64,000 nt of DNA from an uncultured Candidatus Saccharibacteria bacterium (lineage in GTDB: Bacteria; Patescibacteriota; Minisyncoccia; Phycocordibacterales; WO2-35-19): assembly GCA_964589445.1 (NCBI GenBank), contig CAZPQX010000002.1:352-64351 (forward strand), given 5' to 3'. Below are positions 1,529-64,000 of the stretch, in pieces. The notes beneath the pieces were generated by a model that had not been told where the DNA came from, made no database searches, and saw only the letters and a program-made list of their open reading frames with translations. The position numbers and the translations under genes were made by a program. The number at the start of each line of letters is the position of its first letter. Within the stretch, counting starts at the first letter, position 1.

Positions 1529-2536
1529 ATGATATCTTCTGAGGCAATCCAAAAGATTTGTTCTGAATATGGGATCGGAAATTATATTTCTCTTGATAAA
1601 ATCAATCAGGGAGTTTTGAATGATAATTATCTTTTGGAGACCTCAATGGGAAAATATTTTATCAAATCAGTCAGGGAAAAGGCCAAAGATAGAATTGATA
1701 ATATTTATAGTGTGGAATCTTTTATGAAAGAAAAAGATATTCCGGCTATTGTAATGATGAAAACAAAATCTGGAAATATTTTTTTGGAGGATGAAAATAG
1801 TGTTTATACGGTGTATCCATTTTTGGAAGCTGACACCAGTCTCAAATATTCAAAGTCCGAATATTCTACTGTGGGAGAAATGCTTGGGAAAATACATGTT
1901 GCAGGGGGTGGAGATATTACTGGGATTACGGATGTAAAAAAATTTAAAAGACAAAATGATGAAGTCATCCTAGAAAGATTGGAAGGCCACAAGGATTTTA
2001 TTGAAGGTAAAAGTAGTTTAGATGAGACTGATAAACAATTTTTGGAATACATAGATTTTAAATTAAAAATTTATCCTAAAATTAAAAAAACAGAACTGCA
2101 GAGCGATACTCTAATTCATGGAGATTATCATCGAGGCAACTTACTTTTTGATAAAAAAACTAGGGAAATTATAGGTGTCTGCGATTGGGAAAAGACCGAA
2201 TTTGCTCCTCGATCTTATGAATTGTCGCGTTCAATATTCTATTCTTGCTTGCAAGATGAAGAGAATTTTGAAGACGGACTTGATAACGCAAAATCATTTC
2301 TTAATGGATACCTCTCTGTTTATCCAATGCAAAAAAGTGAAGTAATTGATGGTATGAATATGCGCGTTCATCGCATGGCTTTGTCGGGCTGGATTGAAGA
2401 GAAGTATTATAAAAATAATGACGACAGAGCAAATAAGTTTATAAGTAAAGAAATGAGAATGCTTGATAATTTGATAAATAGGGGATTGTTAGAGCGGATA
2501 AAAGAAATATTAAATACGGAGACATCACTGAAATAA
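1529..2536 (+). CDS. aminoglycoside/choline-kinase-like phosphotransferase (APH family)
   Basis: HGDYHRGNLLFD Brenner motif and DWE downstream motif of protein-kinase-like phosphotransferases. Confidence 0.65.
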   Translation: MISSEAIQKICSEYGIGNYISLDKINQGVLNDNYLLETSMGKYFIKSVREKAKDRIDNIYSVESFMKEKDIPAIVMMKTKSGNIFLEDENSVYTVYPFLEADTSLKYSKSEYSTVGEMLGKIHVAGGGDITGITDVKKFKRQNDEVILERLEGHKDFIEGKSSLDETDKQFLEYIDFKLKIYPKIKKTELQSDTLIHGDYHRGNLLFDKKTREIIGVCDWEKTEFAPRSYELSRSIFYSCLQDEENFEDGLDNAKSFLNGYLSVYPMQKSEVIDGMNMRVHRMALSGWIEEKYYKNNDDRANKFISKEMRMLDNLINRGLLERIKEILNTETSLK

Positions 2537-2577
2537 AATTGATTGACCCAAAAGACTATAAAGAATATTTTGGATGG

Positions 2578-2972
2578 GGTGAAATAGGGGATAGGATAAT
2601 GCAGCGGGCTTTGGAGTTGAAGGAAAATTCGGGTAAATGAAAAGGCTCGGAGAAATCTGTTGATCCTCCGAGCCGAACTTTAGAAGAGTGGTACTTCCTC
2701 TTACGGATGAGGTTAATAAACCTCTGCTCTCCGTAGCTAACCAAACTCGAGTGTTTGGCCAGCCGACCTCCTCCCTCGTACCCACCATTGGGTCGTTTGG
2801 GTTTAGAGCGAGTCGTCTCCAGTGGTGAACTGCGCGCTAACGCGTATAGGGCGACGAAGAACGAACGAGCCCGTGAACGCGCCGCAGCCACCATGCACTA
2901 CCACTCTTCTGTCTATAAGTATAGCATACATGCATAAAAAGTCAAGTGTGTTGTGACTTTGTTTGCTGAAGT
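2578..2972 (+). ncRNA. candidate structured ncRNA (unclassified; RNase P RNA, tmRNA or SRP RNA not resolved)
   Basis: About 390-nt GC-rich island (about 55% GC) in an AT-rich genome, with no SD-led ORF. TTGACC-N17-TATTTT promoter puts the transcript start near GGGGUGAAAUAGGGG. Multiple perfect hairpins (ggctcggag-N13-ctccgagcc; ccaaac-tcgagt-gtttgg). A 7-bp hairpin plus T-run sits at 2938-2970. Confidence 0.35.
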
Positions 2973-3044
2973 GCCCAAAAATGGCTTCTAATATGGCTAT
3001 TTAAAAAATGTGATAAAATTACCCCACGAAAACAATAAGATAAT

Positions 3045-3380
3045 ATGTTTGAAAAATTTTTTAGACCGAAAGTTGAAAAAGAGAGAGATGAAGAGGAAAT
3101 AGAAAAGCATTTGTTTGACCTATGTTCGTGGGAGTTTTCGGAAGTGGGGGTAAATATCATAACTATGAAAAGGGCTTTTACCGTCTTGAGGGAAGAAAAC
3201 AAAAATAAAAAATACGGGTTTACCAATAATAGGCTTTTAAATATTGTAAGGGATTGTGCTTCTCTCCATGCATGGCCTATACAAAATGCAGATGGGTCGT
3301 ATGAGTATCCAGATGAAAAAATAAAAGAAGAGATAGAAAAGATTCGTCTTAGTTTGCCGGAAGAAGAAAGAGGGATTTAG
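3045..3380 (+). CDS. hypothetical protein
   Basis: 111-aa acidic ORF downstream of the ncRNA candidate. No recognisable motif. Confidence 0.4.
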   Translation: MFEKFFRPKVEKERDEEEIEKHLFDLCSWEFSEVGVNIITMKRAFTVLREENKNKKYGFTNNRLLNIVRDCASLHAWPIQNADGSYEYPDEKIKEEIEKIRLSLPEEERGI

Positions 3381-7888: not shown

Positions 7889-7917
7889 GTCTCGGAATTT
7901 TACCCTTGTTTAAGGGA

Positions 7918-7950
7918 GGCTGCACACTCGCGAGCGTGCGGCCTTTTTTG
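7918..7950 (+). terminator. intrinsic terminator
   Basis: ggctgcacactcgcgagcgtgcggcc near-perfect palindrome plus tttttt. Confidence 0.75.
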
Positions 7951-8052
7951 TTTTCTCATTTTTCATCAATTCTTCATCTTTTGACTTGACAGGTTTTTCG
8001 TGGGGGAGTACGCTGTTGGGAGTAGTAAAAATCCCACCGTGGAAACGGTTTT

Positions 8053-8265
8053 TTGGAAAGTGTGTTCAAGATGGCATTGTATCCGAGCAAGAGTCAGATT
8101 GATAAGAAGAAGCCGGCGTCGTGGGGTCTTGATAACAAGTACCCTGGCTATACGCCAGATGGTCTGGGTGGGGGTATTTTGTTGACACAGCCACCCACTC
8201 CACGGCAGCAGCCGAGGCAGATGGTGGTCGGGAGTGGGAAGGTCGTGAAGATTCCCAAAGAGTGA
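8053..8265 (+). CDS. GC-rich Pro/Gly-rich small ORF (TTG start; doubtful)
   Basis: Second GC-rich unit with TTGACA-like -35 and a terminator at 8326-8362. Weak RBS. Confidence 0.25.
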   Translation: MESVFKMALYPSKSQIDKKKPASWGLDNKYPGYTPDGLGGGILLTQPPTPRQQPRQMVVGSGKVVKIPKE

Positions 8266-8325
8266 GCCGTTTGTTTGCGGCGCTCGCTTCGGGGGGTCTA
8301 AAATTGACCGTTTGGTCGAATAAAT

Positions 8326-8362
8326 CCGGTGGGCGCGTTGTCGTCCGGGCCGGTTTTTTTTG
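8326..8362 (+). terminator. intrinsic terminator
   Basis: GC hairpin (ccggtgggcgcg...ccgggccgg) plus T8. Confidence 0.6.
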
Positions 8363-8406
8363 CCCAAAAAATTTTTGTAAACACGAGAGAGTGATATAAT
8401 TGAATC

Positions 8407-9435
8407 ATGGAATTTGACTCTCTCTTTAAATTTAAAAACTCAAAATACATTTTCATCGTTGGTATCGGTGGCTCGAACCTCGCTTCCAAGGCAGTGTGGA
8501 GCGCACTCTCTTCTCATAATCCATTTTTAAATAAAAAAGTTTTTTTTATCGAGTCTCTCTCTGAATCACAAAGGCAAGAGATCATGTACATAGCCAAGAA
8601 TGAAGTTGGTTTACCTGAAGATATTTGCATCTTTGTCATAAGTAAGTCGGGGGAGACAAGGGAGACACTCATAAGTTTTAGTGGCCTGATTTCTATTTTT
8701 AAAAATATTTTGGGTACTAATATTTTTGAAAGGGTGGTGTGCATTTCGGAAAGAGACTCGAGGCTCTTTGTTGAGTCGCAGAAAGAAGGTGCATTATGCC
8801 TACCTTGGCAGCAGCAAGTGGGCGGCAGGTGGAGTGCTTTCACTACTGCACACACAGCAGTACTCTTTGTGCTTGGGGTGGATATAAACTCGTATTTGGC
8901 GGGGGAGAGGGAAATGATAGAGGTGTGTAGAGAAAAGGGCTACCACAAAGGGCTCGCAGAAAATATTTTTGAAAATTATAAAAATGGGAAGATAGTTTTG
9001 GATTTCTTTTTGTTTGATGCGCGGCTCGAGACTTTGGGCAAGTGGCTGAGGCAGCTCTTTGCAGAAAGTTTGGGCAAGCAAGGGATAACGGGTGAGAGGG
9101 TAGGGCTTTTGCCTACAGTTTCTCTCGGCCCTACTGACCTACACTCGATGCTGCAGCTATATCTTGGCGGACCGAATAATAGGTTTACCATTTTTGTAAA
9201 AAATGAAAGCGAGCAGGGGTTTGACTATGGTGCGTGCCTCGAGACAGAAGCGGCTTATCAAAATGCGAGTCTGCCTTTTACTGACTACAAACTGTCGGGA
9301 GTAAACGAAAAGGAAATTGCTAAGTTTATGAGATTTTTTATGAATGTGGTGCTCGAGCTTGCTACTCTTTTCAAAGTCGACCCATACGGCCAACCGGAGG
9401 TAGAAAAATATAAACAGCAGATAAAAAATAAATAA
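8407..9435 (+). CDS. pgi: glucose-6-phosphate isomerase (short archaeal/CPR-type)
   Basis: IGIGGSNLASKAVW and FVISKSGETRETL PGI signatures. Confidence 0.8.
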   Translation: MEFDSLFKFKNSKYIFIVGIGGSNLASKAVWSALSSHNPFLNKKVFFIESLSESQRQEIMYIAKNEVGLPEDICIFVISKSGETRETLISFSGLISIFKNILGTNIFERVVCISERDSRLFVESQKEGALCLPWQQQVGGRWSAFTTAHTAVLFVLGVDINSYLAGEREMIEVCREKGYHKGLAENIFENYKNGKIVLDFFLFDARLETLGKWLRQLFAESLGKQGITGERVGLLPTVSLGPTDLHSMLQLYLGGPNNRFTIFVKNESEQGFDYGACLETEAAYQNASLPFTDYKLSGVNEKEIAKFMRFFMNVVLELATLFKVDPYGQPEVEKYKQQIKNK

Positions 9436-10545: not shown

Positions 10546-10650
10546 TAAGATCTTCGCAAAATAAATTTTCTCTCGATACGTAAATTTCTTGCTAGAAATT
10601 TTACTTGTCCTCGCGCCAGTCGCGCTGCGGAATCTCGCGAAAAATTATTT
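10546..10650 (+). repeat. conserved intergenic element, copy 1 (second copy at 45573-45685)
   Basis: About 80% identity over about 100 nt with the grpE-upstream region. Shared CTCGATACG-AAATTT-TTGCTA-AAATTT and GCGCCAGTCGCGCTSCGGAATCTCGC core. Confidence 0.6.
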
Positions 10651-10677
10651 TGCTTAAGATCTACTAAAAAATAAAAA

Positions 10678-21061: not shown

Positions 21062-21448
21062 CTAGCGGCGAAAGCTGTTCCAAAGAGACGGTGCTCCGAA
21101 GGGTGGCTCCTTCTTCCACTTGATCGTCTTCCGGTTTGTAATCCAGTGAGGACGATCTGGGCGACCAAAGCCACAACCATCGAAATCTGGTGCGAGACCG
21201 TGAGTGTTCCTCGGTTGCTCCACCTTTCCTTCACGGAAGAACTTTCGTGCGATCCGAGACGCTTTACCACGAATCTCTCGTGGCCAGCGATAATCTCGGT
21301 ATTCCTTGAGAAGCTTGTCGATCTGCTCCGGTGTGCTGGCCGATGTGCCGGCGATGATGAGTTTTACATCCTTCGGGTCCACCTTCCCCTCAGCCATTTC
21401 TTCACAGCATTTGCCGAGGCTCAAACCGATCAGTCTAGTTTTACGCAT
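21062..21448 (-). CDS. GC-rich hypothetical protein (128 aa)
   Basis: AAGGAG SD 7 nt upstream of ATG. About 52% GC. Isolated on the minus strand between + strand genes. Confidence 0.5.
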   Translation of the reverse strand: MRKTRLIGLSLGKCCEEMAEGKVDPKDVKLIIAGTSASTPEQIDKLLKEYRDYRWPREIRGKASRIARKFFREGKVEQPRNTHGLAPDFDGCGFGRPDRPHWITNRKTIKWKKEPPFGAPSLWNSFRR

Positions 21449-21718
21449 ATCAATCTCCTTTGACTTTTTGTTAGAGGGTTGGGTGTTTCGAACACCCTTA
21501 CCTCAGTCTCTAGAGACCAACACGCTTACAGTAGAGGTGTTCGTTGAAAGAAAAAAATCGTCTTTGCTAGGTCATGTTAAAGAACTCCTTTCTGGGGCTA
21601 ACTAATAAACAGTATACCAAATTATATACTAAAAGTCAATATGTGTAAAGGGTAAGTAAAATAAAGATTTTTTGGCGAAAAAGTGGAGAAAAACTTTAAA
21701 ATAAAGTAGATTGTAGGA

Positions 21719-23784: not shown

Positions 23785-26718
23785 ATGAATAATTATGATC
23801 ACAAAGAAATAGATAAGAAGTGGCCCCACTCCGCTGAAGCTTCGCGGGGCAAGCAAGAGTATAATCATCGAGAGATTGAGTCTAAATGGCAAGAAGTTTG
23901 GAATAAAAATAAACTTTATAAAACAGAGGAAGATCCAAGTAAACCCAAGTCTTTTGTTTTGGACATGTTCCCTTATCCTTCTGGAGAGGGCTTGCATGTC
24001 GGTCACCCCAAGGGCTACATCGCTACTGACATTTATTCCCGTATGAAAAAAATGCAAGGGCACAATGTCTTGCACCCAATGGGATGGGATGCTTTTGGAT
24101 TGCCTGCGGAGAACTTTGCTATAAAACATAAAATTCACCCAAGAGTTGCAGTAGAAAAAAATATTCAAAGATTTAAAGAGCAGCTTTCAAAAATTGGTTT
24201 TAACTATGATTGGGGCAGGGAAATAAATACTACAGATCCAGAATACTATAAATGGACACAGTGGATATTTTTGAAGATGCTCGAAAAAGGTTTGGCTTAT
24301 GAATCTTATGAACCGATAAACTGGTGCCCTTCTTGCCAGACTGGTCTTGCAAATGAAGATTTGGAGTCAGATGGTACTTGTGAACGCTGTGGCTCTGTCG
24401 TAGAAAAGCGCCCAATGCGACAGTGGGTTTTGAAAATAACAGAATACGCAGACAGGATGCTTGAAGATTTGAAACTTTTGGATTGGCCTGAATATATAAA
24501 GGAGGCTCAGAGGAATTGGATAGGTAGGAGTGAGGGGATGCTCTTCAGTGCTCCAGTAAAAGATACTGACTTAAAAATTCAAACATTTTCAGCGCATTTC
24601 GAAGGTTTTGCTGCAGATACTTTTGTTGTAATCGCACCAGATCATCCGTTTTTGCCACAGTTGGTAAAAGGGACTGAAAAAGAAAAAGAAGTTTTGGAAT
24701 TTGCTCAAAAGCTCGTGGAAAAAAGATTGGCTCAAGGGTTTGCTGCCGAAAAAGAGTCAGAAGGGATTTTCACTGGTCGTTATATTGTTGATCCGGTGGG
24801 TAATGGAGATTTGCCAATTTGGGTGGCGAGTTATGCGCTCGCTGATTATGGTACGGGTATAGTGAAATGTTCTGCTCATGATGAGCGAGATTTCGCCTTT
24901 GCGAAAAAATACAATGTTCCCTTGAAAGAAGTTTTGATCCCAAGGATGATTGACTATACCAACCCTCATGTTGAAGGTAAAAAGGTAGTTTTTCGAAAAG
25001 CTGTTATTGTACTTCTCAAAAATCCAAAAACTGGTGAAATATTGACTTTGAAATGGAAGAAGCAGCCCTGGGTCACTTTTGTCATGGGAGGAATTGAAGA
25101 AGGGGAAACTCCAGAACAGGCGGCAGAAAGGGAAATAAAAGAAGAAACTGGTTATCAAAATATAAAAAATATAAAAATTTTGGGTGGTCCGACCCAGGCA
25201 GAATTTTTTGCAGCTCACAAGGATGAAAATCGCATCACCAACTCGTGGCTTGCGGTCGCTGAGCTTGCTGATGAAACTCAAGAAAGTTTGTCCGATGAAG
25301 AAGCTGCGATACATGAACTTGAATGGGTTGATCCAGAAAAAATAGATCCTAAAAAAATCCAGCATAGCGAGGCTGCACTTATCTTGGATAGGATGAAAAA
25401 TGGAGTGAAGGCTTGGACTGATATGAAAAACAGTGTACTTTTGGCACCAGAGCAGTTTAAAGGAAAGATTGCGGGAGAAGTACGACAAGAAATAATCGAA
25501 TATTTAGAAAAAAATAAATTAGCTGAAAAAAAGACCACATATAAAATAAAAGATTGGGTGTTTAGTAGGCAGAGATATTGGGGAGAGCCAATACCTGTGA
25601 TCCATTGCGAAGAGTGTGGGGTCGTAGGCGTGCCCGAAAAAGATTTGCCGGTGAGACTTCCTGATGTTGAAAATTATCAGCCGACAGGTACTGGTGAGTC
25701 TCCGCTTGCCAACATTGAGAATTGGGTAAATACAACTTGTCCTAAGTGTGGTGGTGCTGCAAGGCGCGAGACAAACACGATGCCTCAGTGGGCAGGGTCT
25801 TCTTGGTATTATTTGCGCTTCATGGATCCAAAAAATAGTGAGAAACTTGTCGACCCCAAAAAAGAAAAATACTGGGCGCCTGTTGATGTGTATGTCGGGG
25901 GGGACCATGCGGTGAGACATCTTATATATGCTAGGTTTTGGCATAAGTTTTTGTTTGACATTGGCTCTGTGAGTACCGAAGAGCCTTTTGCTAGATTGGA
26001 ATTCTTGGGATTTATTTTGGCAAAAGACGGAAGGAAGATGAGTAAGAGATGGGGGAATGTGATAAATCCTGACGATATAGTTGATTTGTGGGGAGCAGAT
26101 ACCTTGAGGCTCTATGAGATGTTTATGGGCCCATTTGAAAACACGATTGCTTGGAAAGATGAAAGTCTTATAGGTGTCAGGAGATTTTTAGAAAGGTCTT
26201 GGAAATTTGCGCATGGCAATTTTGTAGATCAAGATTCTCAAGAAAAAAATCAAAAAATAGAGTCATTACTACACAAAACAATCAAAAAAGTAACTGAAGA
26301 CATAGAAGGTTTCAAATTCAATACCGCCATTTCTACGATGATGATCTTGCTCAATGAATTTGAGGCGAATAAAGATTTGGTTTCTAAAGAATATGTCGAG
26401 GTATTTTTGAAACTTTTGGCCCCTTTTGCTCCTCATATGGCCGAAGAGATATGGTCTGGTTTTGGAAACCAAAAATCAATACATTTGGAAGAATGGCCAA
26501 AGTTTGACGAGTTAAAAACCAAGGAGACAGAGGTAAAAATTATGGTGCAGGTAAACGGCAGAGTGAGGGCAAATTTCGTTGCAAATGCTGGTATTTCTGA
26601 AGAAGAAGCCAAAAAACAGGCCCTCGCCATGCCAGAAGTTCAGAAGTGGATTCAAGGTCTTAGCATAGAGAAGACAATCTTTGTTGTGGATAAGCTTCTG
26701 AATATCGTTGTAAAATAG
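23785..26718 (+). CDS. leuS: leucyl-tRNA synthetase with an embedded Nudix hydrolase domain
   Basis: HVGHPKGY (HIGH), KMSKRWGN (KMSKS) and a LeuRS-specific anticodon-binding C-terminus. A GGIEEGETPEQAAEREIKEETG Nudix box lies within an insertion of about 150 aa (about nt 24940-25420). Confidence 0.9.
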   Translation: MNNYDHKEIDKKWPHSAEASRGKQEYNHREIESKWQEVWNKNKLYKTEEDPSKPKSFVLDMFPYPSGEGLHVGHPKGYIATDIYSRMKKMQGHNVLHPMGWDAFGLPAENFAIKHKIHPRVAVEKNIQRFKEQLSKIGFNYDWGREINTTDPEYYKWTQWIFLKMLEKGLAYESYEPINWCPSCQTGLANEDLESDGTCERCGSVVEKRPMRQWVLKITEYADRMLEDLKLLDWPEYIKEAQRNWIGRSEGMLFSAPVKDTDLKIQTFSAHFEGFAADTFVVIAPDHPFLPQLVKGTEKEKEVLEFAQKLVEKRLAQGFAAEKESEGIFTGRYIVDPVGNGDLPIWVASYALADYGTGIVKCSAHDERDFAFAKKYNVPLKEVLIPRMIDYTNPHVEGKKVVFRKAVIVLLKNPKTGEILTLKWKKQPWVTFVMGGIEEGETPEQAAEREIKEETGYQNIKNIKILGGPTQAEFFAAHKDENRITNSWLAVAELADETQESLSDEEAAIHELEWVDPEKIDPKKIQHSEAALILDRMKNGVKAWTDMKNSVLLAPEQFKGKIAGEVRQEIIEYLEKNKLAEKKTTYKIKDWVFSRQRYWGEPIPVIHCEECGVVGVPEKDLPVRLPDVENYQPTGTGESPLANIENWVNTTCPKCGGAARRETNTMPQWAGSSWYYLRFMDPKNSEKLVDPKKEKYWAPVDVYVGGDHAVRHLIYARFWHKFLFDIGSVSTEEPFARLEFLGFILAKDGRKMSKRWGNVINPDDIVDLWGADTLRLYEMFMGPFENTIAWKDESLIGVRRFLERSWKFAHGNFVDQDSQEKNQKIESLLHKTIKKVTEDIEGFKFNTAISTMMILLNEFEANKDLVSKEYVEVFLKLLAPFAPHMAEEIWSGFGNQKSIHLEEWPKFDELKTKETEVKIMVQVNGRVRANFVANAGISEEEAKKQALAMPEVQKWIQGLSIEKTIFVVDKLLNIVVK

Positions 26719-45572: not shown

Positions 45573-45685
45573 GCAAAATAGCTTCCTTTGCTCGATACGG
45601 AAATTTTTTGCTAAAAATTTGCCTCTGTCTAGCGCCAGTCGCGCTCCGGAATCTCGCTCAGGAACTATTTTGCTCCCTAATCTGA
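45573..45685 (+). repeat. conserved intergenic element, copy 2 (upstream of grpE-dnaK-dnaJ)
   Basis: Homologous to 10546-10650. Core GCGCCAGTCGCGCTCCGGAATCTCGC at 45632-45657. Confidence 0.6.
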
Positions 45686-46289: not shown

Positions 46290-46401
46290 CAATCTATATT
46301 ATACCAAATTTTGAAAAGACAGTCAAGTTAACAGAGTGTTGTATGAAGGGTATAATTTTAGCCGCAAATACTTTTAATTTATAAACTAACTTTAAATTCA
46401 C

Positions 46402-53450: not shown

Positions 53451-53699
53451 CTTATTATTTGTTCTCCCATGTCGGAAGCCTCATTTTTATCTTGTATGAT
53501 TTCATTATAACTTATTCTCACTCACTGTTATTTTAGAGTGTGGATAAGTATCTAAAGCTCGGGTTTGAATATCTAACGCTGAGCGTTTGATATAGATTTT
53601 AGTATAAAAATATTGTAAAAAAGGGTTTTTCGAGAGGCTTGAAAATAGGGGTAAGCTCAGTTTGGGGTGGGGCCAAAATAGCCAATCTCGCCTGGACCT

Positions 53700-54100
53700 A
53701 CCTTCGGAAGGGAGAGGAGTGGTATTTTATGATATATTTTTTGACTTTTTACAAAATAAATTATAAAAACAAAAATTATTATTTAGTCTAATTTTCTACT
53801 AAATAATTTTTGAGATACAAAAATTATATTTTTTTCATCTTATATTCTTTGAAGAGTTTTATTTTATTTTTAAATTTTATTCTTTTTAAAAAATTTGAAT
53901 AATTATCTGTATTAAAAAAATTATTTTAAATATAAAAATATTTTATTATTTAAATTTTTATATTTAGGAAGTGTCAAAAATATTTTAAAATTTAAAAAAA
54001 GATAGTATCTATTTTCGTTTATGGTAAATAGGACAATAGGGGACTCATAAAATTTTAATTTATATTTTTTAATAAAAATTAATTTTTATTATTTATCATT
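53700..54100. other. extreme AT-rich non-coding tract (about 85-90% AT)
   Basis: About 400 nt of A/T runs with no ORF, flanked by DnaA-box-like 9-mers. Confidence 0.7.
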
Positions 54101-54102
54101 TT

Positions 54103-54417
54103 TTAATGAAGAGTGTTGTTGTCTGGTGCGCTATCACTTTCTGATTTTATGTCTCTATCATCCTCTTCACTTTCTTCATTTTCAAGGTGCTGTACAACTA
54201 GCTTTCTTACGAGAGACTTTTTCTCTTTTATTAAGAATGGACTGGTTTCTATAAGATCAATCACTTGGTCTATATCTTCTACTCTATATATACGGTAGTT
54301 ATTGAATGGATGTCTGTATGCTTTGAGCTTACCGTTCTTGTCCCAATTGCGCAAGGTGAGCTTAGATACTCCAAGGATAGATGCTGCGTCTTTTATGGTT
54401 ATGTATTTATTGCTCAT
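54103..54417 (-). CDS. excisionase/MerR-family HTH DNA-binding protein (HTH_17-like)
   Basis: YITIKDAASILGVSKLTLRNWDKNGKLKAYR...YRIYRVEDI, with an acidic C-terminal tail. Confidence 0.65.
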   Translation of the reverse strand: MSNKYITIKDAASILGVSKLTLRNWDKNGKLKAYRHPFNNYRIYRVEDIDQVIDLIETSPFLIKEKKSLVRKLVVQHLENEESEEDDRDIKSESDSAPDNNTLH

Positions 54418-54902
54418 TGTATTTAAAGGTTATTTTATATAAAAATAAACATATATAAACCTTAATAAACATTATAAACTTATATTAATAAATATTAAAG
54501 TTTATATATGTGGAAAACTAAAAATATATCAATATAGATATTGCTTACCATGACATTCTGTAGTGGGGTTTACTTGGTTTAGGTCTTGTCTTTCTGCATT
54601 AAGGGCGACAACCTGATTTTCCTTGTGAAGCCCGATAGACTCTTGTGTGCGTAAAATCCAAATAAAATGGGTAATCTGTATATTTAAGTCGCTGACCAAG
54701 GGGCTTCTAGTTCTGAGAGGTGTTTTTTTGCGACTTTGAGGGCAATATTTTGTACTTCATGAGTCATTATGCGATGTTTGGGTATATTCTAAAAAAATAA
54801 AAAATGTGAAAAAATTTTGAAAAAATATCGGTTGACTTTTTTAAAAAAAATGGAGATATGTCTCGGATGAATGAAGAAATACTTTTTTCAAATAACACTT
54901 AA

Positions 54903-54911
54903 TTATCCACA
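54903..54911 (+). promoter_or_regulatory. consensus DnaA box TTATCCACA
   Basis: Perfect 9-mer. A second perfect copy lies in reverse orientation at 53539-53547. Relaxed matches at 54509-54517 and 54805-54813. Confidence 0.45.
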
Positions 54912-54954
54912 CTTTTTTCTTTATCTCGTCTTCACGAGATATTAAAATAAATAG

Positions 54955-57900
54955 GTGCAAGGATCTCTGAATTTTGAAGGCAAAAAATATATATCAGCAA
55001 AAGATGCTGCTAAGCAATTTGGCTATACAAGTGACTACATTGGTCAGCTTTGTCGTGGTGGTAAAATAAAATCAAAGCTTGTGGGTAGGGTGTGGTATGT
55101 ACTCGAATCAGAAATATCTTCTTACAAAAAAGTTCATCTCGCTCCAGGTAGACCATCTAAAAAAAATCTTTCAAACAAAAAAACACTACACTCATCTTCA
55201 TTTAAGAAAACAAAAAAAATTGCAGATTCAAAAGAAGATGTTTTGTTAGAAAATAAAAAAGAAATTTATTTAAATTTAGAAACACCTAAAGAATCACCAA
55301 AATACAACGTATTTCCTGAAATATCTCGGGTTGCCGAGATTGATTCAAAAAAAGTCTTATATATAGAAGACAATTCAGAGCTATTCCCAACACTCAAAAG
55401 AAACATAGACCTCGAATACATAAAAAGACATGCTTTTGATAACCTAGAAAAGGCAAAAAGCGGCAAATATAAAGCGACCAAATTTGATAAAACAGTCGCT
55501 TCTTCGCTTGTGGCAGTAGTCGTACTTTCTTTGGGCACTTTTGGTCTTTTTGAAGGGTCAAATTTCATAAACAGACTAAAGACAGAGTCTCGAGGTTCTG
55601 CTTTTGAAGAAGTTTCGCTGCTCTATTCTCCTCTCGTTAGAGATATAAACAGATCTGTGGCTCAAATTTCAGAAAAAACAGGAGTTTCTAGTTCACAGTT
55701 GGCTCTCTCTGTCGCATCAGATAGCAATACAAAATTAGTTTTTGATTTTGTAAGGAATATTGGAGAAAAAGTATTTGGCAGGTTCTTTGGCAAAGAGACT
55801 GTTTTGGTGGATTCTGGCGAATCAAACACGGTAAAAACAATAGTTATAAAAGAGACTTCTTATCCTTCTGCTGCTCCCGCACAAAATACAGTATCTACCC
55901 AAGCAAAGACAGTCTTCTTACCTTCTTTTGATAAGGAATACATAAACTCACTCATCGAAGAAAAATTTGTGGCTCTCAAAAACAATTTCCTCACTAGCAC
56001 CATTGCTCCAAATGTAAACAGGTACTATGTGTCAAGACAAAATGATGAAATAGTCGGCAATATAGGAAGTGTGGTTGCCAATCTCGAAGACAGGATAGAC
56101 GATGCAATCTCAAATATATCACTCACTGACCTCAATCTTTCTACTCTTTCAGTATCAGGTACCTCTATATTCTCTGGAAATGTGTCTCTAAATGGCTCGA
56201 CCACAGCAAGCACACTCTCTGCCACGGATTGGCTTTCTGTAGGTACTACCACAAATCATGCCACTCTCACAGTGGATGGTGCTTTTTACTTGGCGCAAGT
56301 TACCCCTCCGGGAGACACATCAAACAGGCTTTACAATGACGGAGGTGATTTGTATTGGAATGGCTCTATACTCGCTGGCTCCGGAGTGGGCAATTGGTCT
56401 ACAGATGGCACTAGTGTATGGAGAGCTTCAGGAAAAGTGGGTATAGGTACATCTACTCCTTCAACAGCTTTAGTTGTTCAAGGAAATGGTCTGACTTATG
56501 TAAATACAAATACAAATGCAGGAAGTTCTACAATATCTTTTGGAGGAGGCAACAATAATCGCCCTGTCTTTAATATGGGCCCCTTGGGTACTCCAGATGA
56601 ATTTAAAATATGGAACCTTGGATATTACCAGATGGGCGCTACAAATTCACAAGGATTAGCTCTTATGACCAACAATACCAATCGCTTGTATATAACAAGT
56701 GCTGGAAATGTAGGTATTGGAACAACAAGTCCAGGTAGTTTACTACAAATAGAAGGGAACCCATCTGGAGCAATACTTACTCTAAGGAGGGCTTCAACTG
56801 CAGGGGATTTGCCAATTTACTTTACAAAATCAAATGGTGGGCTCCAGGGAGCCATAGTTTCTTATAATGCAGGAGATATTTCTCTACATACAACTGATGG
56901 GGCAGAAAAAGTCAGATTGTTAAATAATGGAAATTTGGGTATTGGCACCACATCACCATTTGCAAAACTTTCTGTCGAGTCGACTGCGGGGGCTGCACAG
57001 TTTGCTATTGGCTCATCAACCGCCACTTCTTTTATTGTCGACAAAAATGGAAATGTTGGGATTGGTATAGTGACCCCTACACAAGCATTGGATGTAGTGG
57101 GAAGCGTACAAGCTTCAGGTAGTTTCTATTCTGGAAATGGTATAGGCATATCTCCAACTCAAACTACCATGTATAGTGGCTACAATTTTGGTTGGAATGC
57201 AAACGCTACTCGCGCAGGAAGCCCTGATGTAAATCTTTCAAGGGGTGGTGTATCAAAATTGTATTTAGGCAACGGCACATTAGGTGACTTTACTGGTACT
57301 TTGATTGCGGGAAACATAGGAGTCGCTACTACTTCTCCCTCTGCAAAACTTTCTATAAAGGCGGATGGTACTGGTACTGGCAGAGCATTTACTATTTCTG
57401 ACTCTGCTGATGCCGAGAAACTCACTGTACTTGATAATGGAAGTTTGCTCTTAGGTACTGGCTCACAGCTAGCAAGCTCGGGCAAGATAAGATTGACGCT
57501 TGGTGATGGTATCAGGTGGAGGAGAAATGATTTGGTAAATGATATGGGCATTACATACGATGCATCAGGTTCTTTTTGGTACGGTACAGCATCTTCTTCA
57601 TCTGCTCCTTTCCTTATAAATTCAAGCGGAAATATAGGGGTGGGTATATCTAGTCCTACAAGCCTTTTGACCTTGTATGGTGCGAGCCAGACCATCACAC
57701 TTCAAAATCCAACTACAGGTAGTACTGTAAGTGATGGCTACTACTTGGGGCTAGGTGCCGGCACCACAGATATGTATTTGTGGAATAGAGAGAGTGGTGC
57801 TGTCTATTTTGGTCAAAACAATGGTACTGTTATGACTTTAAATAATGGGAATGTCGGTATTGGTACTACGACTCCAGTGACCAAACTTACAGTTTATGGT

Positions 57901-60900
57901 ACTTCAGCTGATGCTTCTGCTTTGCTTGATAACGGCATATTTACAGTAAGAGGAAGCAACGGAGCTTATCTCCAAATTGGATCACAGACTGGCGAGCCTT
58001 ACGGTCTATATTTGCAGGGTAAAGATAGGACAAACAATGGTACTACATACCCTATCTTATTAAATCCAGTTGGAGGAAATGTGGGTGTTGGTACCACTAC
58101 TCCTTGGGGTAAGCTTTCGATCACAAATACGGGTAGCGGCCCAAGTTTTATCGTCGAAGACAGCACATCTCCTGATGCTTCTCCTTTTGTAATAGATGCG
58201 AGTGGGAATGTGGGGGTGGGGACGGTTGTTGCAGATAACAAGCTTCATATTGTTGATACACTGGCTAGCAATTTGCGCTACGGACTTAAATTAAGCAATT
58301 CGGCAGACGGAGTAGGTGCTGCAACTGGAATTTTATTTGAAGTTCAAGGTGGTGCAGCTGGAAGAGGAAAAGGTGGTCTTATATATCAAAATGATACTTC
58401 TTTAGGTTGGAATAGAGGAGATTTTATGTTTCTACAGAATTCAACAGCTGACGCCACAAACCCTACTGCTTCTAATGCAGTACTTACTATAAAAAATAAT
58501 GGTAATGTCGGTATTGGTTCGACCTCACCATTTGCAAAACTTTCTGTTGAATCGACTGCGGGAGCATCACAGTTTGTGGTCGGGTCATCGACTGCAACGC
58601 AATTCATTGTCGACAAGAATGGGAATGTGGGAGTGGGGACTGCGAATCCAACTTCCTTGTTACAAATATACGGTCAGGGCGTTGACATTTTGCAAGTTGG
58701 TAATGGTGTAGATACAAATACAAGTTTGAATGTACAAAATAGAGCTTTGTTTGGTTATAACCAAACAAGAGCGGCTGCTACTATACAAGGCATATCAGGT
58801 AGGGGTATAGATTTTAATGTTAATAACAATACATTTGGTTCGGGTCAGGCTATGGTAATCACAAGTGCTGGTAACGTCGGAGTCGGTACCACATCTCCTT
58901 TGGGCTTGCTCTCAGTAAACGCAAATGGCCTTGCGAGCGGCGCACCTCAGTTTGTCGTCGGCTCAAGCACGGCGACAAACCTTATAGTGGCTAATGATGG
59001 AAATGTGGGCGTAGGTATGACAAGTCCTTCATACAAGCTGGATGTGAATGGAGACATAAGATACGGTGCAAACGGTACTTTGAGGATAAATGGTGCCGGA
59101 AACTTTAAATTAGATAGCGATGAACTTTTCTTTGGTGGAGGCTCTCTTGGGACGATAAAAACAAACTGGGGTGGTGGAGGCCTAAGTTTGATAGCTGGAG
59201 GCAACAATCAGACAAGTGGCGATATCTCTTTGATAACAAATACAGCTTCTGGTGATGTGACAAGACTTATAATAAAAAGTGATGGAAATGTCGGCATCGG
59301 CACCACATCACCATACGCAAAGCTCTCTGTAGTAGGAGATGCAGCAATCACTGGCAATGTGAGAGTGGCTGGGCTCACTGCTACAGGCACAGTCACTTTC
59401 TCCGGTATCACTGGCTCTGACCAGTGTCTCCAAGTAGACGCAAACGGAGTAGTCGCTGGTACAGGAAGTGCTTGCGGCTCTAGTAGTGGTGGGTCAGCTG
59501 GCGGCACATGGGCGACTACCACATCACAAGTTGCGGGTAGGTTTGTAAACTATTCACTCAACTCTACTGACCTGGTAGCGATAGGCAGCAACTCGACCAC
59601 CACAGCAGAATTTTGGTTCGACCCAAACACTTCGACTTCATATCTTTCTGGAAATGTGGGTATCGGGGTTACATCTCCAGGAAATAAATTACATATAACA
59701 GGTGGAGGTATTTCTATAGGTAACAATGCGGCTCTAACAGACAGAGGTTTGATAAGTGTACATGATTCTTCAGATGCAAGAATAAATATTACTAAGGCAG
59801 GTGTGGATGGTTATAGATTGGAAACAAATGGAACTGCTGGTTCTTCTTATTTCACTATTGGAAGGGATAATGGAAGCTCTGATACTGGTAGTACTAATGC
59901 ATTTTTGAATATAACTCAGGCAGGCAATGTGGGCGTTGGCTCTACCACTCCAATGGATAAATTAACTGTTGTGGGAGGGGACATAAGTCTTTCAAGAAAT
60001 CAATACATTAGATTTAGATCTGAATCCTCTTCTATACAATCAGCAGCTATAGGTGGCACTTCTAGCAACGATCTTGCTTTTTACACAAATGGCCTAGCTG
60101 AAGGTATGAGACTTACTTCTTCTGGATATTTGGGTATTGCCTCTACTTCTCCTTGGGGGCTCCTATCCGTTAACCCAAATGGACTTTCAAGCGGCGCACC
60201 ACAATTCGTCGTCGGCTCAAGCACAGCTACCAACTTCATTATTGCGAATAATGGAAATGTGGGTGTGGGTATCACAAACCCAACTGCAAAATTAGATGTG
60301 AACGGTTCAATCTATTTGAGAACCGGGAGTTTTTTCTCAGATACTTATAGTGGTTATTCTGGAGGTGCTGTTACTCACAATATTCCATCAAGTTCATATT
60401 TGAGGTTTGTTATGGGTTCTCCAACTTCCTCTTTCCAAATACAAGATTCTTCTGCTGTGCCTCTATTAAAAATGGAAGCAAACGGAAGATTGGGGCTTGG
60501 AAGCAGCACCCCTTGGGCACAACTTTCAGTCCACCGAAATACTTCTGACACATCATACTCTCCACTCTTCGCTATCGCTTCTTCGACTGCTAGCGGCACG
60601 ACGACAAACTTCATTGTGGCAAATAATGGGAATGTCGGCATCGGGACTACTAATCTAACTGATAACTTAACCCTTAAACCATCATCAGCAGGTAAGGGAA
60701 TGGTGGTAAGGGAATCAGACGATGGTAATGAAGCAATTAGACTACTTGGTTTTTCTGGTGGTGGAAATCTAAGCCTCCAAACTGGAGGAGTAAATACAAT
60801 TAGCTTTGATGCCACAAGTGCCTCAGGGATATCATATTTTAATGCTGGGAATGTCGGCATCGGCACTACTACACCAAATAGGAAACTAACTGTATTTTCT

Positions 60901-63900
60901 GATTCTACAGTAGGGCAATCTCAATTAAGACTTGGTTTTAGTGATCAATTCTCTTGGGATATAGGAAGAGACAACGGTTCTTCTGATGGTAGATTGATGT
61001 TTACAAGTAATCACAATGGTACAACAGCAGAAAGAATGTCAATTTTATCAAACACCGGCAATGTAGGTATTGGTACTACATCCCCTTGGGGCTTGCTATC
61101 CGTAAATGCAAACGGACTTTCAAGCGGTGTGCCTCAATTTGTAGTCGGCTCATCTACAGCGACAAACTTCATTGTGGCGAATGGTGGGAATGTAGGTATA
61201 GGTACAGCAGAACCTACAGAAAAATTATCAGTAAATGGCAATATTCAAATTCCTTCAGGTAGTGCTATTCGTCTTTCGTCACTAGCAGGAAGCCCCCAAA
61301 TATTCTCATCTGGTTCCACAAATATTAGTATCAGCCCTGCCTCAAATGGAACTGTGGTACTTGGCTCTGTTGCGGGTATAAAAGCAGGAGTTGGTACTAC
61401 AACGCCATTTGGTGCACTTGCAGTTAACAGTATTGCTGGTGTGCCTGGATTTACTGTTGGCTCATCAACAGGAACATACTTTATTGTCGACAAGAATGGA
61501 AATGTGGGTGTGGGGACGACGAGTCCATTCAGTCATTTTGAGGTTCAAGGTTCCGGGATATATGACGCATACAATACTATTACCGCATCAGGAGGGAATC
61601 AGGCGGCATTATATATCAGACGTGTACAATCGGGAGGTTCGTATAACAACGGCTGGACTTGGTATATTCCTGCTTCATCTAAAGATTTGCGGCTTTATGG
61701 CGACGCGGGCGGGGATTTGTTAACGGTGCAATCAACTACCGGTAACGTGGGTATTGGTACTACAAGTCCTTCGTCGGCTTTGCATGTTTCTAACTCAAGT
61801 GCCAATCCTCTGCTAACATTTGAGAGGCCTGGTGTTTCGACTGTTAATTTTGGGAATTCTGGTTCTGTTTGGACATGGTCTTCAAGTGCGGCATCTGCAA
61901 ACCACTTTGCATTTGCGCCAGCTGGAGTAGAGGCGATGAGGATACAAAATGGTGGCAACGTCGGTATCGGTACTACAGCTCCAGGAGACAAGCTTGAAGT
62001 TTCTGGAAATGTTTTTGCTTCAGCCTTCAACTCTACAAGTACTGTCTCTAGGTATAATTCAATTGGTGGAGTATTTATGGCAGGAAATGGTGGAAGTTCT
62101 TATGCTGAAATACGAGCCTACTCAGATGTTGCTGGTACTGGAAAGATTTTGTCTCTAAATTCAAATGGTGGCAATGTCGGTATTGGTACTACAAGTCCAA
62201 CCAATACACTAGCTATTTCAGGTATTGGTCTTGATATAAATCGTGATGGTGCAGAGCCTAATGTTGTATTTAGATCAACTGGGGCACAAGTTTCTCAGAT
62301 TAGAGGACTAGTCGGTGGTGGTTTGAGATTTACAAACGGTAATTCAAGTTCTGAATGGGCAAAAATTGATTCTAGTGGAAATTTTGGTGTTGGTTCTTCT
62401 ACTCCTTGGGGACTCCTCTCTGTAAATGCAAATGGGCTATCTAGTGGCGCACCACAATTCGTAGTCGGTTCATCTACAGCAACCAACTTTATCGTGGCGA
62501 ATGGTGGAAACGTTGGTGTAGGATTGCTCAGCCCAAGTTCAAGACTTGATGTCCAAGGTGTGGCTGGTGCAACTAATATATTTAGAGTTGCCTCTTCTAC
62601 TGGCTCTGATCTCCTCACTGTAGATAAGGCGGGAAACGTTTGGATAGGTACGACAGTTGTAGAACAAAGGACTCTTACTCTCCAAGCTACTGACCCTGTA
62701 TTTTATTTGAAATCATATGGAGGTTCTTCTGCACAAATTAAATATGACGGGGGATCTACTTTCACTTTGACTGACGGAACAACAAACATTTTGCAATTTA
62801 ATAATTCTGGAAGCGGTAATGATATTGATATTGTCGCTAGAAACAGTTCTGATTCTGATATTGGTTTTAATACAGGAAATGGGCAAAGAAGAATGACTGT
62901 AAAATATGATGGAAATGTCGGCATCGGTACTACTACACCACAAACCAAGCTTGTTATTTACGATACTGATTATGCGACAAACAACAGAGCCAACTTAGAG
63001 ATAATGACTTCTTCTAGTCAGGCGGCTGGCGTAGGAGGTTCGATTGCTTTTGGTGGCAGAAATGATCAGGGTACTTCTCCTTCAAATAGTCCATATATTT
63101 TTGGAAAAATAGAAGGTATAAGTGAGGGCTCAACTGGCTGGGCTGGTGCACTTGCATTTTCTACTACAGAAGGAAGTTCGGGTATTACAGAAAAATTGAG
63201 AATAACTAGTGCAGGTTATACAGGTGTGGGTTCTTCTACACCTTGGGGACTCCTCTCCGTCAATGCAAATGGACTATCTAGCGGAGCTCCTCAGTTTGTC
63301 GTGGGCTCATCTACAGCAACCAACTTTATCGTGGCGAATAATGGAAATGTGGGAGTAGGGACTGCTAGCCCATCTCATAAGTTAACTTTGGCCAGTGGAA
63401 ATTTTGCAGTCGAAACCGGAAACATGTATTTAGCTTCTGGTAATAGTATTCATTTTGATTATGGTTCAAGTAATAGTTATTACATCCAAAAGAATGGAAC
63501 TAACTTATATCTTGGTACTGGCGGAAGTTTTGCAATGATGAATGGTAATGTAGGTGTCGGCACCACAACACCAGGTGACTTACTTACACTCTCATCTCTA
63601 AACCCAAGAATTGATTTGTGGGCAAATACTTCTACTTCAACTAGAGTGGCTTTGACTTCTTATGGAAACCTAGGATTTGCAACTTTGCAAACTAGAGGTG
63701 CTTTTGGTTTGAGACTCGGTACAAATAGTGGTGAACATTTGAATATAGATACTTCAGGTAATGTAGGTATTGGGACGTCATCACCAACTTACTTGTTAAA
63801 TGTTGTAGGTGCTACTGGTGGAGTTTCTGGAATCACTACACAAAATACCAGTGCCTCATCGTATGGTATGCTTAATGTCTTTAACAAAGGAGCAAAGGGT

Positions 63901-64000
63901 TTAAATGTTTACGCTCTCGGTTCTACATACGGCAACACCTTCTTTGGTGGGGTTACTGGGAATAACCAATTGGTACTTGAGGCAAATTCAGGAACTAGTA
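54955..64000 (+). CDS. giant cell-surface protein (>3,015 aa, 3' partial): N-terminal excisionase-like HTH, single TM, then about 30 tail-fibre-like G-N-V-G-I-G-T-T-S-P repeats
   Basis: Uninterrupted frame from GTG 54955 (in-frame TAG at 54952) to the window end, verified codon by codon for the first 700 nt and spot-checked downstream. Not in the ORF track because no stop falls within the window. All listed minus-strand ORFs from 55266 to 62948 are its antisense shadows. Confidence 0.8.
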   Translation, partial: MQGSLNFEGKKYISAKDAAKQFGYTSDYIGQLCRGGKIKSKLVGRVWYVLESEISSYKKVHLAPGRPSKKNLSNKKTLHSSSFKKTKKIADSKEDVLLENKKEIYLNLETPKESPKYNVFPEISRVAEIDSKKVLYIEDNSELFPTLKRNIDLEYIKRHAFDNLEKAKSGKYKATKFDKTVASSLVAVVVLSLGTFGLFEGSNFINRLKTESRGSAFEEVSLLYSPLVRDINRSVAQISEKTGVSSSQLALSVASDSNTKLVFDFVRNIGEKVFGRFFGKETVLVDSGESNTVKTIVIKETSYPSAAPAQNTVSTQAKTVFLPSFDKEYINSLIEEKFVALKNNFLTSTIAPNVNRYYVSRQNDEIVGNIGSVVANLEDRIDDAISNISLTDLNLSTLSVSGTSIFSGNVSLNGSTTASTLSATDWLSVGTTTNHATLTVDGAFYLAQVTPPGDTSNRLYNDGGDLYWNGSILAGSGVGNWSTDGTSVWRASGKVGIGTSTPSTALVVQGNGLTYVNTNTNAGSSTISFGGGNNNRPVFNMGPLGTPDEFKIWNLGYYQMGATNSQGLALMTNNTNRLYITSAGNVGIGTTSPGSLLQIEGNPSGAILTLRRASTAGDLPIYFTKSNGGLQGAIVSYNAGDISLHTTDGAEKVRLLNNGNLGIGTTSPFAKLSVESTAGAAQFAIGSSTATSFIVDKNGNVGIGIVTPTQALDVVGSVQASGSFYSGNGIGISPTQTTMYSGYNFGWNANATRAGSPDVNLSRGGVSKLYLGNGTLGDFTGTLIAGNIGVATTSPSAKLSIKADGTGTGRAFTISDSADAEKLTVLDNGSLLLGTGSQLASSGKIRLTLGDGIRWRRNDLVNDMGITYDASGSFWYGTASSSSAPFLINSSGNIGVGISSPTSLLTLYGASQTITLQNPTTGSTVSDGYYLGLGAGTTDMYLWNRESGAVYFGQNNGTVMTLNNGNVGIGTTTPVTKLTVYGTSADASALLDNGIFTVRGSNGAYLQIGSQTGEPYGLYLQGKDRTNNGTTYPILLNPVGGNVGVGTTTPWGKLSITNTGSGPSFIVEDSTSPDASPFVIDASGNVGVGTVVADNKLHIVDTLASNLRYGLKLSNSADGVGAATGILFEVQGGAAGRGKGGLIYQNDTSLGWNRGDFMFLQNSTADATNPTASNAVLTIKNNGNVGIGSTSPFAKLSVESTAGASQFVVGSSTATQFIVDKNGNVGVGTANPTSLLQIYGQGVDILQVGNGVDTNTSLNVQNRALFGYNQTRAAATIQGISGRGIDFNVNNNTFGSGQAMVITSAGNVGVGTTSPLGLLSVNANGLASGAPQFVVGSSTATNLIVANDGNVGVGMTSPSYKLDVNGDIRYGANGTLRINGAGNFKLDSDELFFGGGSLGTIKTNWGGGGLSLIAGGNNQTSGDISLITNTASGDVTRLIIKSDGNVGIGTTSPYAKLSVVGDAAITGNVRVAGLTATGTVTFSGITGSDQCLQVDANGVVAGTGSACGSSSGGSAGGTWATTTSQVAGRFVNYSLNSTDLVAIGSNSTTTAEFWFDPNTSTSYLSGNVGIGVTSPGNKLHITGGGISIGNNAALTDRGLISVHDSSDARINITKAGVDGYRLETNGTAGSSYFTIGRDNGSSDTGSTNAFLNITQAGNVGVGSTTPMDKLTVVGGDISLSRNQYIRFRSESSSIQSAAIGGTSSNDLAFYTNGLAEGMRLTSSGYLGIASTSPWGLLSVNPNGLSSGAPQFVVGSSTATNFIIANNGNVGVGITNPTAKLDVNGSIYLRTGSFFSDTYSGYSGGAVTHNIPSSSYLRFVMGSPTSSFQIQDSSAVPLLKMEANGRLGLGSSTPWAQLSVHRNTSDTSYSPLFAIASSTASGTTTNFIVANNGNVGIGTTNLTDNLTLKPSSAGKGMVVRESDDGNEAIRLLGFSGGGNLSLQTGGVNTISFDATSASGISYFNAGNVGIGTTTPNRKLTVFSDSTVGQSQLRLGFSDQFSWDIGRDNGSSDGRLMFTSNHNGTTAERMSILSNTGNVGIGTTSPWGLLSVNANGLSSGVPQFVVGSSTATNFIVANGGNVGIGTAEPTEKLSVNGNIQIPSGSAIRLSSLAGSPQIFSSGSTNISISPASNGTVVLGSVAGIKAGVGTTTPFGALAVNSIAGVPGFTVGSSTGTYFIVDKNGNVGVGTTSPFSHFEVQGSGIYDAYNTITASGGNQAALYIRRVQSGGSYNNGWTWYIPASSKDLRLYGDAGGDLLTVQSTTGNVGIGTTSPSSALHVSNSSANPLLTFERPGVSTVNFGNSGSVWTWSSSAASANHFAFAPAGVEAMRIQNGGNVGIGTTAPGDKLEVSGNVFASAFNSTSTVSRYNSIGGVFMAGNGGSSYAEIRAYSDVAGTGKILSLNSNGGNVGIGTTSPTNTLAISGIGLDINRDGAEPNVVFRSTGAQVSQIRGLVGGGLRFTNGNSSSEWAKIDSSGNFGVGSSTPWGLLSVNANGLSSGAPQFVVGSSTATNFIVANGGNVGVGLLSPSSRLDVQGVAGATNIFRVASSTGSDLLTVDKAGNVWIGTTVVEQRTLTLQATDPVFYLKSYGGSSAQIKYDGGSTFTLTDGTTNILQFNNSGSGNDIDIVARNSSDSDIGFNTGNGQRRMTVKYDGNVGIGTTTPQTKLVIYDTDYATNNRANLEIMTSSSQAAGVGGSIAFGGRNDQGTSPSNSPYIFGKIEGISEGSTGWAGALAFSTTEGSSGITEKLRITSAGYTGVGSSTPWGLLSVNANGLSSGAPQFVVGSSTATNFIVANNGNVGVGTASPSHKLTLASGNFAVETGNMYLASGNSIHFDYGSSNSYYIQKNGTNLYLGTGGSFAMMNGNVGVGTTTPGDLLTLSSLNPRIDLWANTSTSTRVALTSYGNLGFATLQTRGAFGLRLGTNSGEHLNIDTSGNVGIGTSSPTYLLNVVGATGGVSGITTQNTSASSYGMLNVFNKGAKGLNVYALGSTYGNTFFGGVTGNNQLVLEANSGTS

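Follow-up and report, generated by a model that had tools for sequence, protein, structure and literature searches.

A candidate minus-strand orphan gene for a highly structured non-coding RNA in Patescibacteria

The window considered here, i.e. the whole 64-kb stretch of DNA that was analysed, is, judging from its gene content, an ordinary piece of Patescibacteria (Paceibacteria/Taylorbacteria-like) chromosome carrying housekeeping genes. A Pfam scan of its genes identified BipA, YchF, LeuRS, AlaRS, MnmA, ribosomal proteins, RpoA, GrpE-DnaK-DnaJ and GatB, together with DUF5652 and DUF5671 family members; the genes scanned include no transposase, integrase, reverse transcriptase or Cas protein. 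The locus of interest is an intergenic gap of 508 nt (2537-3044). Its upstream edge is a plus-strand gene encoding an APH-family kinase (1529-2536) and its downstream edge is a plus-strand gene (3045-3380) encoding a 111-aa protein with no assigned function. Among named relatives, those closest to the neighbouring proteins come from Taylorbacteria and Paceibacterota assembled genomes. The predicted structure of the 111-aa protein is uninformative, as its pLDDT is 67 and it has no fold match in the PDB at E<=0.001.

This gap ranks third by length among the gaps of the window and its GC peak is the highest of all. The original prediction had described a 390-nt island of about 55% GC. The island is real, but this GC content is that of its core only (55.5% over 2682-2910), the span 2578-2972 having 49.6% and the 64-kb window 40.3%. 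Every base of the gap is the same in the other assemblies of this organism; as the same island is carried by four independent assemblies, it is not a chimera. Direct repeats occur nearby (the 11-mer AAATAGGGGAT at 2476 and 2582; AATkTGATAAA at 2468 and 3007) and are unconvincing as insertion scars, being AT-rich and having a frequency near that expected by chance.

Several other parts of the window deserve mention in their own right. Another GC-rich gap (7966-8370, 62% GC at its peak) has a hairpin followed by a T-run at its end and may hold a 64-aa ORF or a structured transcript. Two copies (10557-10660 and 45573-45680, ~83% identical) of a ~100-nt element with a long closing stem differ by five base pairs that are changed on both sides and still paired. 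This element, one copy of which lies directly upstream of grpE-dnaK-dnaJ, has no Rfam match and may correspond to a regulatory element, a mini-repeat or a small structured RNA. Two long gaps beside a MerR-family gene (53451-55265) have only 23-30% GC, with a minimum of 14% in 53701-54000, and hold many A/T inverted repeats. The leucyl-tRNA synthetase (23785-26718) has a NUDIX domain inserted after its editing domain (residues 403-529, according to Pfam), and a huge repetitive ORF (~55600-64000), made of many diverged GNVGIGTTxP-type repeats (families D1-D7), leaves the window.

The best promoter match of the region 2300-3300 lies on the minus strand (TTGACT-N16-TGcTATACT, 2945-2918). Its -35 box TTGACT (2940-2945) and the extended -10 box TGcTATACT (2918-2926), separated by a 16-nt spacer, give a 10/12 match plus the TG; six distinct sites reach this level in 64 kb, versus 1.8 expected. 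From the geometry of this promoter, transcription is predicted to start at 2910-2913, where purines (G2913, A2912 and A2910) are found 5-8 nt past the -10 box. A near-twin of this promoter (TTGACT-N17-TGgTATACT, 21611-21639, minus strand) precedes a minus-strand gene (21062-21448) that carries a ribosome-binding site and a terminator, and an extended -10 box of the TGnTATAAT type likewise precedes the neighbouring gene at 3428. The transcription unit at 21062-21639 consists of a strong promoter, a ~150-nt leader with a ribosome-binding site, a GC-rich 128-aa gene and a terminator, all on the minus strand; nearly every other gene of the window is a plus-strand gene. Of the promoter-like sites of the window, the strongest (TTGACT-N17-TGgTATAAT, 11/12 plus TG, 46298-46326, minus strand) is located between grpE and dnaK and is directed antisense into the 3' end of grpE.

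At the other end of the island, a hairpin with a 9-bp GC stem (ggctcggag/ctccgagcc, 2644-2674; -21.2 kcal/mol, z = -5.0) is directly followed, in 3', by the U-tract UUUUCAUUU (2635-2643) on the minus strand. Read on the plus strand, the same hairpin (GGCUCGGAG/CUCCGAGCC) is followed by GAACTTTAG, which lacks a T-run. The stem and the tract that follows it on the minus strand therefore constitute a canonical intrinsic terminator. The perfect stem-loops on which the original prediction relied are present (GGCTCGGAG/CTCCGAGCC at 2644/2666; CCAAAC/GTTTGG at 2741/2753), as are the other motifs that it listed (GGGGTGAAATAGGGG at 2576 and GCCACCA at 2887). The end that it proposed for the transcript, a 7-bp hairpin with a U-run, had to be abandoned: the hairpin in question (2932-2966) has an A/U-rich stem, its T-run is poor, the terminator scan does not report it and it shares positions with the -35 box of the minus-strand promoter, the stronger of the two.

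The RNA predicted from the fold of 2630-2915 would be ~275 nt long (2635-2912, minus strand) and would comprise a 229-nt core followed by the terminator. The original prediction had found no P1 pairing, but a perfect 12-bp inverted repeat closes the structure: the 5' strand of P1, AGAAGAGUGGUA (2899-2910), is the exact complement of its 3' strand, UACCACUCUUCU (2682-2693), with a pair probability of 0.99. The -10 box ends 8 nt before this helix and the terminator hairpin begins 8 nt after it. Within the 64 kb, the 12-mer is found only at the two ends of the island; allowing at most one mismatch, there are three matches versus 0.32 expected.

P1 would enclose four arms. Arm 1 (2820-2895) is irregular, a hairpin of 76 nt interrupted by several internal loops, with a C/U-rich apical loop and two G·U pairs; its helices have mean pair probabilities of 0.59-1.0. 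Arm 2 (2764-2815), which includes the purine-rich strand GGGAGGAGGUCG, is the least certain one (helix probabilities 0.44-0.73), its centroid and minimum-energy structures being in disagreement. Arm 3 (2736-2763), predicted with a probability of 1.0, is an 11-bp hairpin (GCUGGCCAAAC/GUUUGGUUAGC) with a 6-nt loop; it incorporates the ccaaac/gtttgg stem and contains two adjacent G·U pairs, the plus-strand equivalents of which are A·C. Arm 4 (2702-2735; UACGGA..GAGGUU UAUU AACCUC..UCCGUA) is a hairpin with an internal loop and probabilities of 0.63 and, for its apical helix, 0.97. P1, Arm 3 and most of Arm 1 have helix probabilities of 0.9-1.0. The predicted RNA is nearly all helical, its longest single-stranded stretch being ~9 nt. 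A six-pair contact between UUCUUC in the apical loop of Arm 1 (2856-2861) and GAGGAA in the junction before P1 (2695-2700) is possible; this pairing was found by inspection and could be due to chance.

The folding of the island exceeds chance. The whole unit on the minus strand (2630-2915, 286 nt) has an energy of -122.4 kcal/mol (z = -6.1), which none of 200 shuffled sequences equals, and a 233-nt core reaches -101.2 kcal/mol (z = -5.9), the mean of its shuffled versions being -75.6 kcal/mol. The general idea of the original prediction, i.e. that this GC-rich region devoid of ORF is a candidate gene for a structured RNA, is borne out, with z scores of -5.9 to -6.1 on the minus strand. It should be considered, however, that GC-rich DNA laden with inverted repeats gives strong z scores on both strands (here, z = -4.8 on the plus strand), which counts against reading the fold as that of an sRNA gene.

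Taken together, these data point to an independent minus-strand gene whose product would be a stable and highly structured non-coding RNA, a reading to which we give a probability of roughly 0.55 from the signals and the modelled fold. By prediction only, the island has the generic attributes of an independent sRNA gene, namely its own promoter, its own intrinsic terminator and the lack of coding capacity, and a strongly folded core with paired ends, framed by both signals on a single strand, has, somewhat more probably than otherwise, the look of a dedicated stable-RNA gene. The proposed process can be viewed as follows. Transcription of the minus strand would be driven by a promoter of the sigma-70 type that has an extended -10 box (2945-2918), and the first base transcribed would also be that with which the closing helix begins. 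The 5' end of the RNA would pair with 2682-2693 to form this 12-bp helix, within which a four-arm multi-helix junction would fold, and the hairpin and U-tract would terminate transcription 8 nt past the helix. The paired ends and compact fold would give a stable RNA acting in its own right. As it offers almost no long single-stranded segment, it would more likely serve as a protein-binding scaffold or decoy than as an antisense regulator; matches to possible antisense targets in the window are chance matches of at most 12 nt. Since it matches no known family and no relative was found, any function proposed for this RNA is a guess. The gene would have been acquired with, or as, a small insertion at a variable spot between the kinase gene and the gene of the 111-aa protein.

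The same features could be those of a non-functional GC-rich insert, either decayed foreign DNA or a small mobile element, that folds by virtue of its inverted repeats and whose promoter-like and terminator-like sites are fortuitous or leftover. This is the alternative that best withstands the data, although we consider it unlikely. Its GC content is foreign to the genome and its GC-rich core is bounded by the 12-bp inverted repeat in the manner of terminal inverted repeats. Furthermore, the island is known from a single organism, none of the searches that were run found a homologue, and the content of the spot differs between relatives. The contigs with kinase homologues (L004-L011, 57-68% identity) do not have the island; in the one encoding the closest kinase (L004, 68% identical), a NUDIX gene takes its place. 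Contigs carrying homologues of the gene of the 111-aa protein (L052-L056, L067 and L068; 49-82% identity) show no similarity to the island either. Upstream of this homologue are found coding sequence (L053 and L068), an unrelated GC-rich stretch (L056), a PemK toxin gene (L055) or, directly upstream, a tRNA-like gene (L067, 873-945; assigned to Gln by eye from its UUG anticodon loop), and one contig (L052) ends 37 nt upstream of it. The presence of PemK and of a tRNA-like gene at the position of the island fits an insertion hot spot.

The search for relatives was also negative in 40 BipA loci from species genomes (L012-L051, one of them 79% identical), whether by nhmmer, by blastn or with a covariance model. 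This model, built from the single sequence of the island, retrieved only the source copy and generic hairpins. Two pattern scans of metagenomes gave, for one, no match and, for the other, eight chance matches that were rejected by the covariance model. Five scans of viral sequences returned nothing relevant to the island, blastn against phage and plasmid collections gave no match and an exact look-up of the DUF5652 neighbour led to the same contigs only. One sequence from the viral scans (L065) was discarded, as it is an unrelated perfect palindrome of 220 nt whose 11-mer ends are shared with the island by chance. In the sets searched, all known copies are thus 100% identical and belong to one organism, and no divergent homologue was found. 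As it is known from one organism and occupies a spot that is variable among relatives, the island is, within these DNA sets, probably a lineage-specific acquisition, and an RNA restricted to a single species could be young and devoid of function. As a separate observation, the closest species genome (L012, BipA 79% identical) contains a GC-rich gene of 224 aa whose 3' end is repeated ~450 bp downstream (7890-7990 and 8340-8445); the two copies differ mainly at adenines of the second one, a pattern that matches the variable and template repeats of diversity-generating retroelements.

Other data argue against a non-functional insert. No second copy was found in the 64 kb or in ~1 Mb of related loci, there is no target-site duplication (the flanks, ACTTT and GTCTA, differ) and the genes scanned in the window include neither a transposase nor an integrase. 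Moreover, a promoter ending 8 nt before the repeat and a terminator beginning 8 nt after it are not expected of random decay. A miniature element of the MITE type was specifically rejected, because neither the 12-mer search in 64 kb nor the covariance model revealed multiple copies and because of the lack of target-site duplication. The candidate RNA gene is thus still preferred, probably as a credible but orphan structured sRNA gene that is lineage-specific and acquired, the last point being suggested by its restriction to one lineage and by the variability of its spot.

A structured RNA could also be read from the plus strand, as first proposed, either as an independent transcript starting near 2578 or as a structured 3' UTR of the kinase gene. 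The promoter then put forward, TTGACC-N17-TATTTT, does exist (2543-2571), and read-through is likely, as no terminator separates the kinase gene from the island. The plus strand also folds well, its own best fold of the core reaching -90.2 kcal/mol (z = -4.8). However, this promoter is weaker, as it is only a 9/12 match and lacks the TG found at real promoters here. No convincing plus-strand terminator was found by the scan. The core is 11 kcal/mol less stable than on the minus strand because five G·U pairs of the minus-strand fold have A·C as their plus-strand counterparts; the mirror image of the minus-strand fold, placed on the plus strand, has only -84.1 kcal/mol. Over 2575-2975, z is just -2.2 on the plus strand versus -4.7 on the minus strand. 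With its better promoter, canonical terminator, lower energy and five G·U pairs, the minus strand is that to which the sequence and the modelled folds point for the structured RNA, and the plus-strand alternative appears very improbable.

Could the minus-strand RNA belong to a universal family (RNase P, 6S, tmRNA or SRP) and be so divergent that the Rfam models miss it? Its architecture, i.e. a GC-rich island with its own promoter, paired ends and a terminator, is typical of such RNAs, none of which is found elsewhere in the 64-kb window, and the sequence of 6S RNA is known to diverge strongly. Nevertheless, comparison with Rfam 15 revealed no family match at the gathering threshold in the whole window. 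At E<=10, the region 2300-3200 (901 nt) gave five unrelated chance matches, none of them to RNase P, tmRNA, SRP or 6S, an outcome that the original prediction had itself named, together with a lack of covariation, as speaking against it, and the 286-nt unit (2630-2915) gave zero matches on both strands. Related Paceibacteria loci (~270 kb) yielded only tRNAs with Rfam, a result that is uninformative on how the RNase P, SRP and tmRNA models perform in this clade; a universal RNA would be expected in relatives, and that none was seen in the related DNA, which covers 10-20 kb per genome, is a weak argument against the same explanation. A literature search on RNase P, 6S or non-coding RNA in Patescibacteria/CPR found nothing relevant.

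Each family was also considered on its own features. The original prediction had seen resemblances to RNase P RNA, which do not stand: RNaseP_bact_a/b do not reach their gathering threshold, CR-I (GAGGAAAGUCC) needs at least three mismatches on either strand and CR-V (ACAGAANNCGGCUUA) has no match with up to three, so that the strands of the P4 pseudoknot are not found. The ends paired by P1 (12-bp helix) are a trait of RNase P RNA that is common to many RNAs and not diagnostic. The tmRNA-like ends fared hardly better: GCCACCA is present, but it lies inside Arm 1 and not at a 3' end. ARAGORN detects no tRNA or tmRNA gene in the 64 kb, Rfam is negative and the T-loop motif GGUUCGAAUCC is unmatched with up to three mismatches. 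For SRP RNA, there is no Rfam match, and the motifs of helix 8, those of its conserved GGAA-tetraloop region and symmetric loop, need at least three mismatches or are not found, on both strands. For 6S RNA, there is no match to RF00013, and the best rod-like fold (-67.2 kcal/mol) is 34 kcal/mol worse than the branched one (-101.2 kcal/mol) and even worse than the shuffled mean (-75.6 kcal/mol); the branched fold, compared with the rod, contains Arm 3 with a probability of 1.0 and the apical helix of Arm 4 with 0.97. A divergent member of these universal families is thus highly improbable. Other identities were rejected as well: a template repeat of a diversity-generating retroelement, a retron or a guide RNA or array, as there is no repeat partner in the window, there are no tandem units and the genes scanned encode neither a reverse transcriptase nor a Cas protein or transposase, and a type I toxin-antitoxin system, as the opposite strand has no small hydrophobic ORF.

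As to coding potential, the absence of a credible ORF and the nonsense-like, Arg/Ser-rich translations reported by the original prediction were both confirmed. The longest ORF of the gap encodes 112 aa (2556-2894, minus strand) and another one encodes 87 aa (2525-2788, minus strand). An exhaustive phmmer search with the former found no relative among 1.84 billion representative proteins, a concatenated query of the six frames had no match at E<=10 among 5.8 billion clusters and the frames of the gap have no match in Pfam. As no frame has a protein relative, the gap is probably not coding. That one of these two ORFs would be a small protein gene is hardly credible, even though the GC-rich gene at 21062-21448 offers a minus-strand precedent with the same type of promoter: besides having no homologue in any frame and an Arg/Ser-rich, nonsense-like composition, both ORFs extend across the hairpin and the U-tract of the terminator, the ATG is not preceded by an AGGAG-type ribosome-binding site and, in three independent assemblies, no gene was called in the gap.

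Patescibacteria have tiny genomes. To our knowledge, their non-coding RNAs other than the universal ones have hardly been described at all, and clade-specific structured RNAs are essentially uncharted. If the reading as an RNA gene is true, a genome of this kind would be devoting considerable resources to a 230-nt four-arm RNA equipped with a promoter and terminator of its own. On a more speculative level, the island RNA might be the first member of a new class of stable, horizontally mobile, four-arm structured RNAs of ~230 nt in Patescibacteria; they would act as ribonucleoprotein scaffolds, protein decoys or ribozymes and would have relatives in the Logan, ENA and NCBI WGS assemblies. Such a class is a long shot; if relatives exist and covary, they would establish a new class of RNA in a lineage that is symbiotic and uncultivated. 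The practical value lies for now in the corrected strand and the exact boundaries, which make the candidate directly testable. By its kind, an independent structured sRNA gene, it would be ordinary; what is new is a member without detectable family.

The island can finally be compared with known systems. It shares with MITE-like elements a size of 200-300 bp, perfect 12-bp inverted repeats at its ends, a variable spot and its absence from relatives; unlike them, it is present as a single copy, without target-site duplication or related transposase, and a promoter and a terminator, both on the same strand, frame it exactly. Like the gene of RNase P RNA (rnpB; RF00010/RF00011), it is a stand-alone GC-rich island in an AT-rich genome, with a long P1, arms and a terminator after P1, but its core has only 229 nt and lacks CR-I, CR-V and a partner for the P4 pseudoknot, and the models remain silent at E<=10. 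The 6S RNA (ssrS; RF00013) is likewise an independent stable RNA of ~200 nt with paired ends, and it acts as a protein-binding decoy and not by antisense pairing, which is the mode of action that we consider most likely for the island RNA; 6S RNA binds the RNA polymerase holoenzyme and serves as a template for product RNAs. However, 6S RNA adopts a rod-like fold made of a closing stem, a large central bubble and a terminal stem, whereas the island RNA would have a branched four-arm fold and does not match the covariance model. Orphan large structured non-coding RNAs such as raiA and ROOL were found as GC-rich intergenic regions in AT-rich genomes, and these classes are defined by many homologues showing covariation. 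The island RNA differs from them in being a single sequence that matches no model of Rfam 15, but it resembles them in that it has no assigned function, occupies a long GC-rich gap, has its own predicted promoter and terminator and would adopt a complex multi-stem fold.
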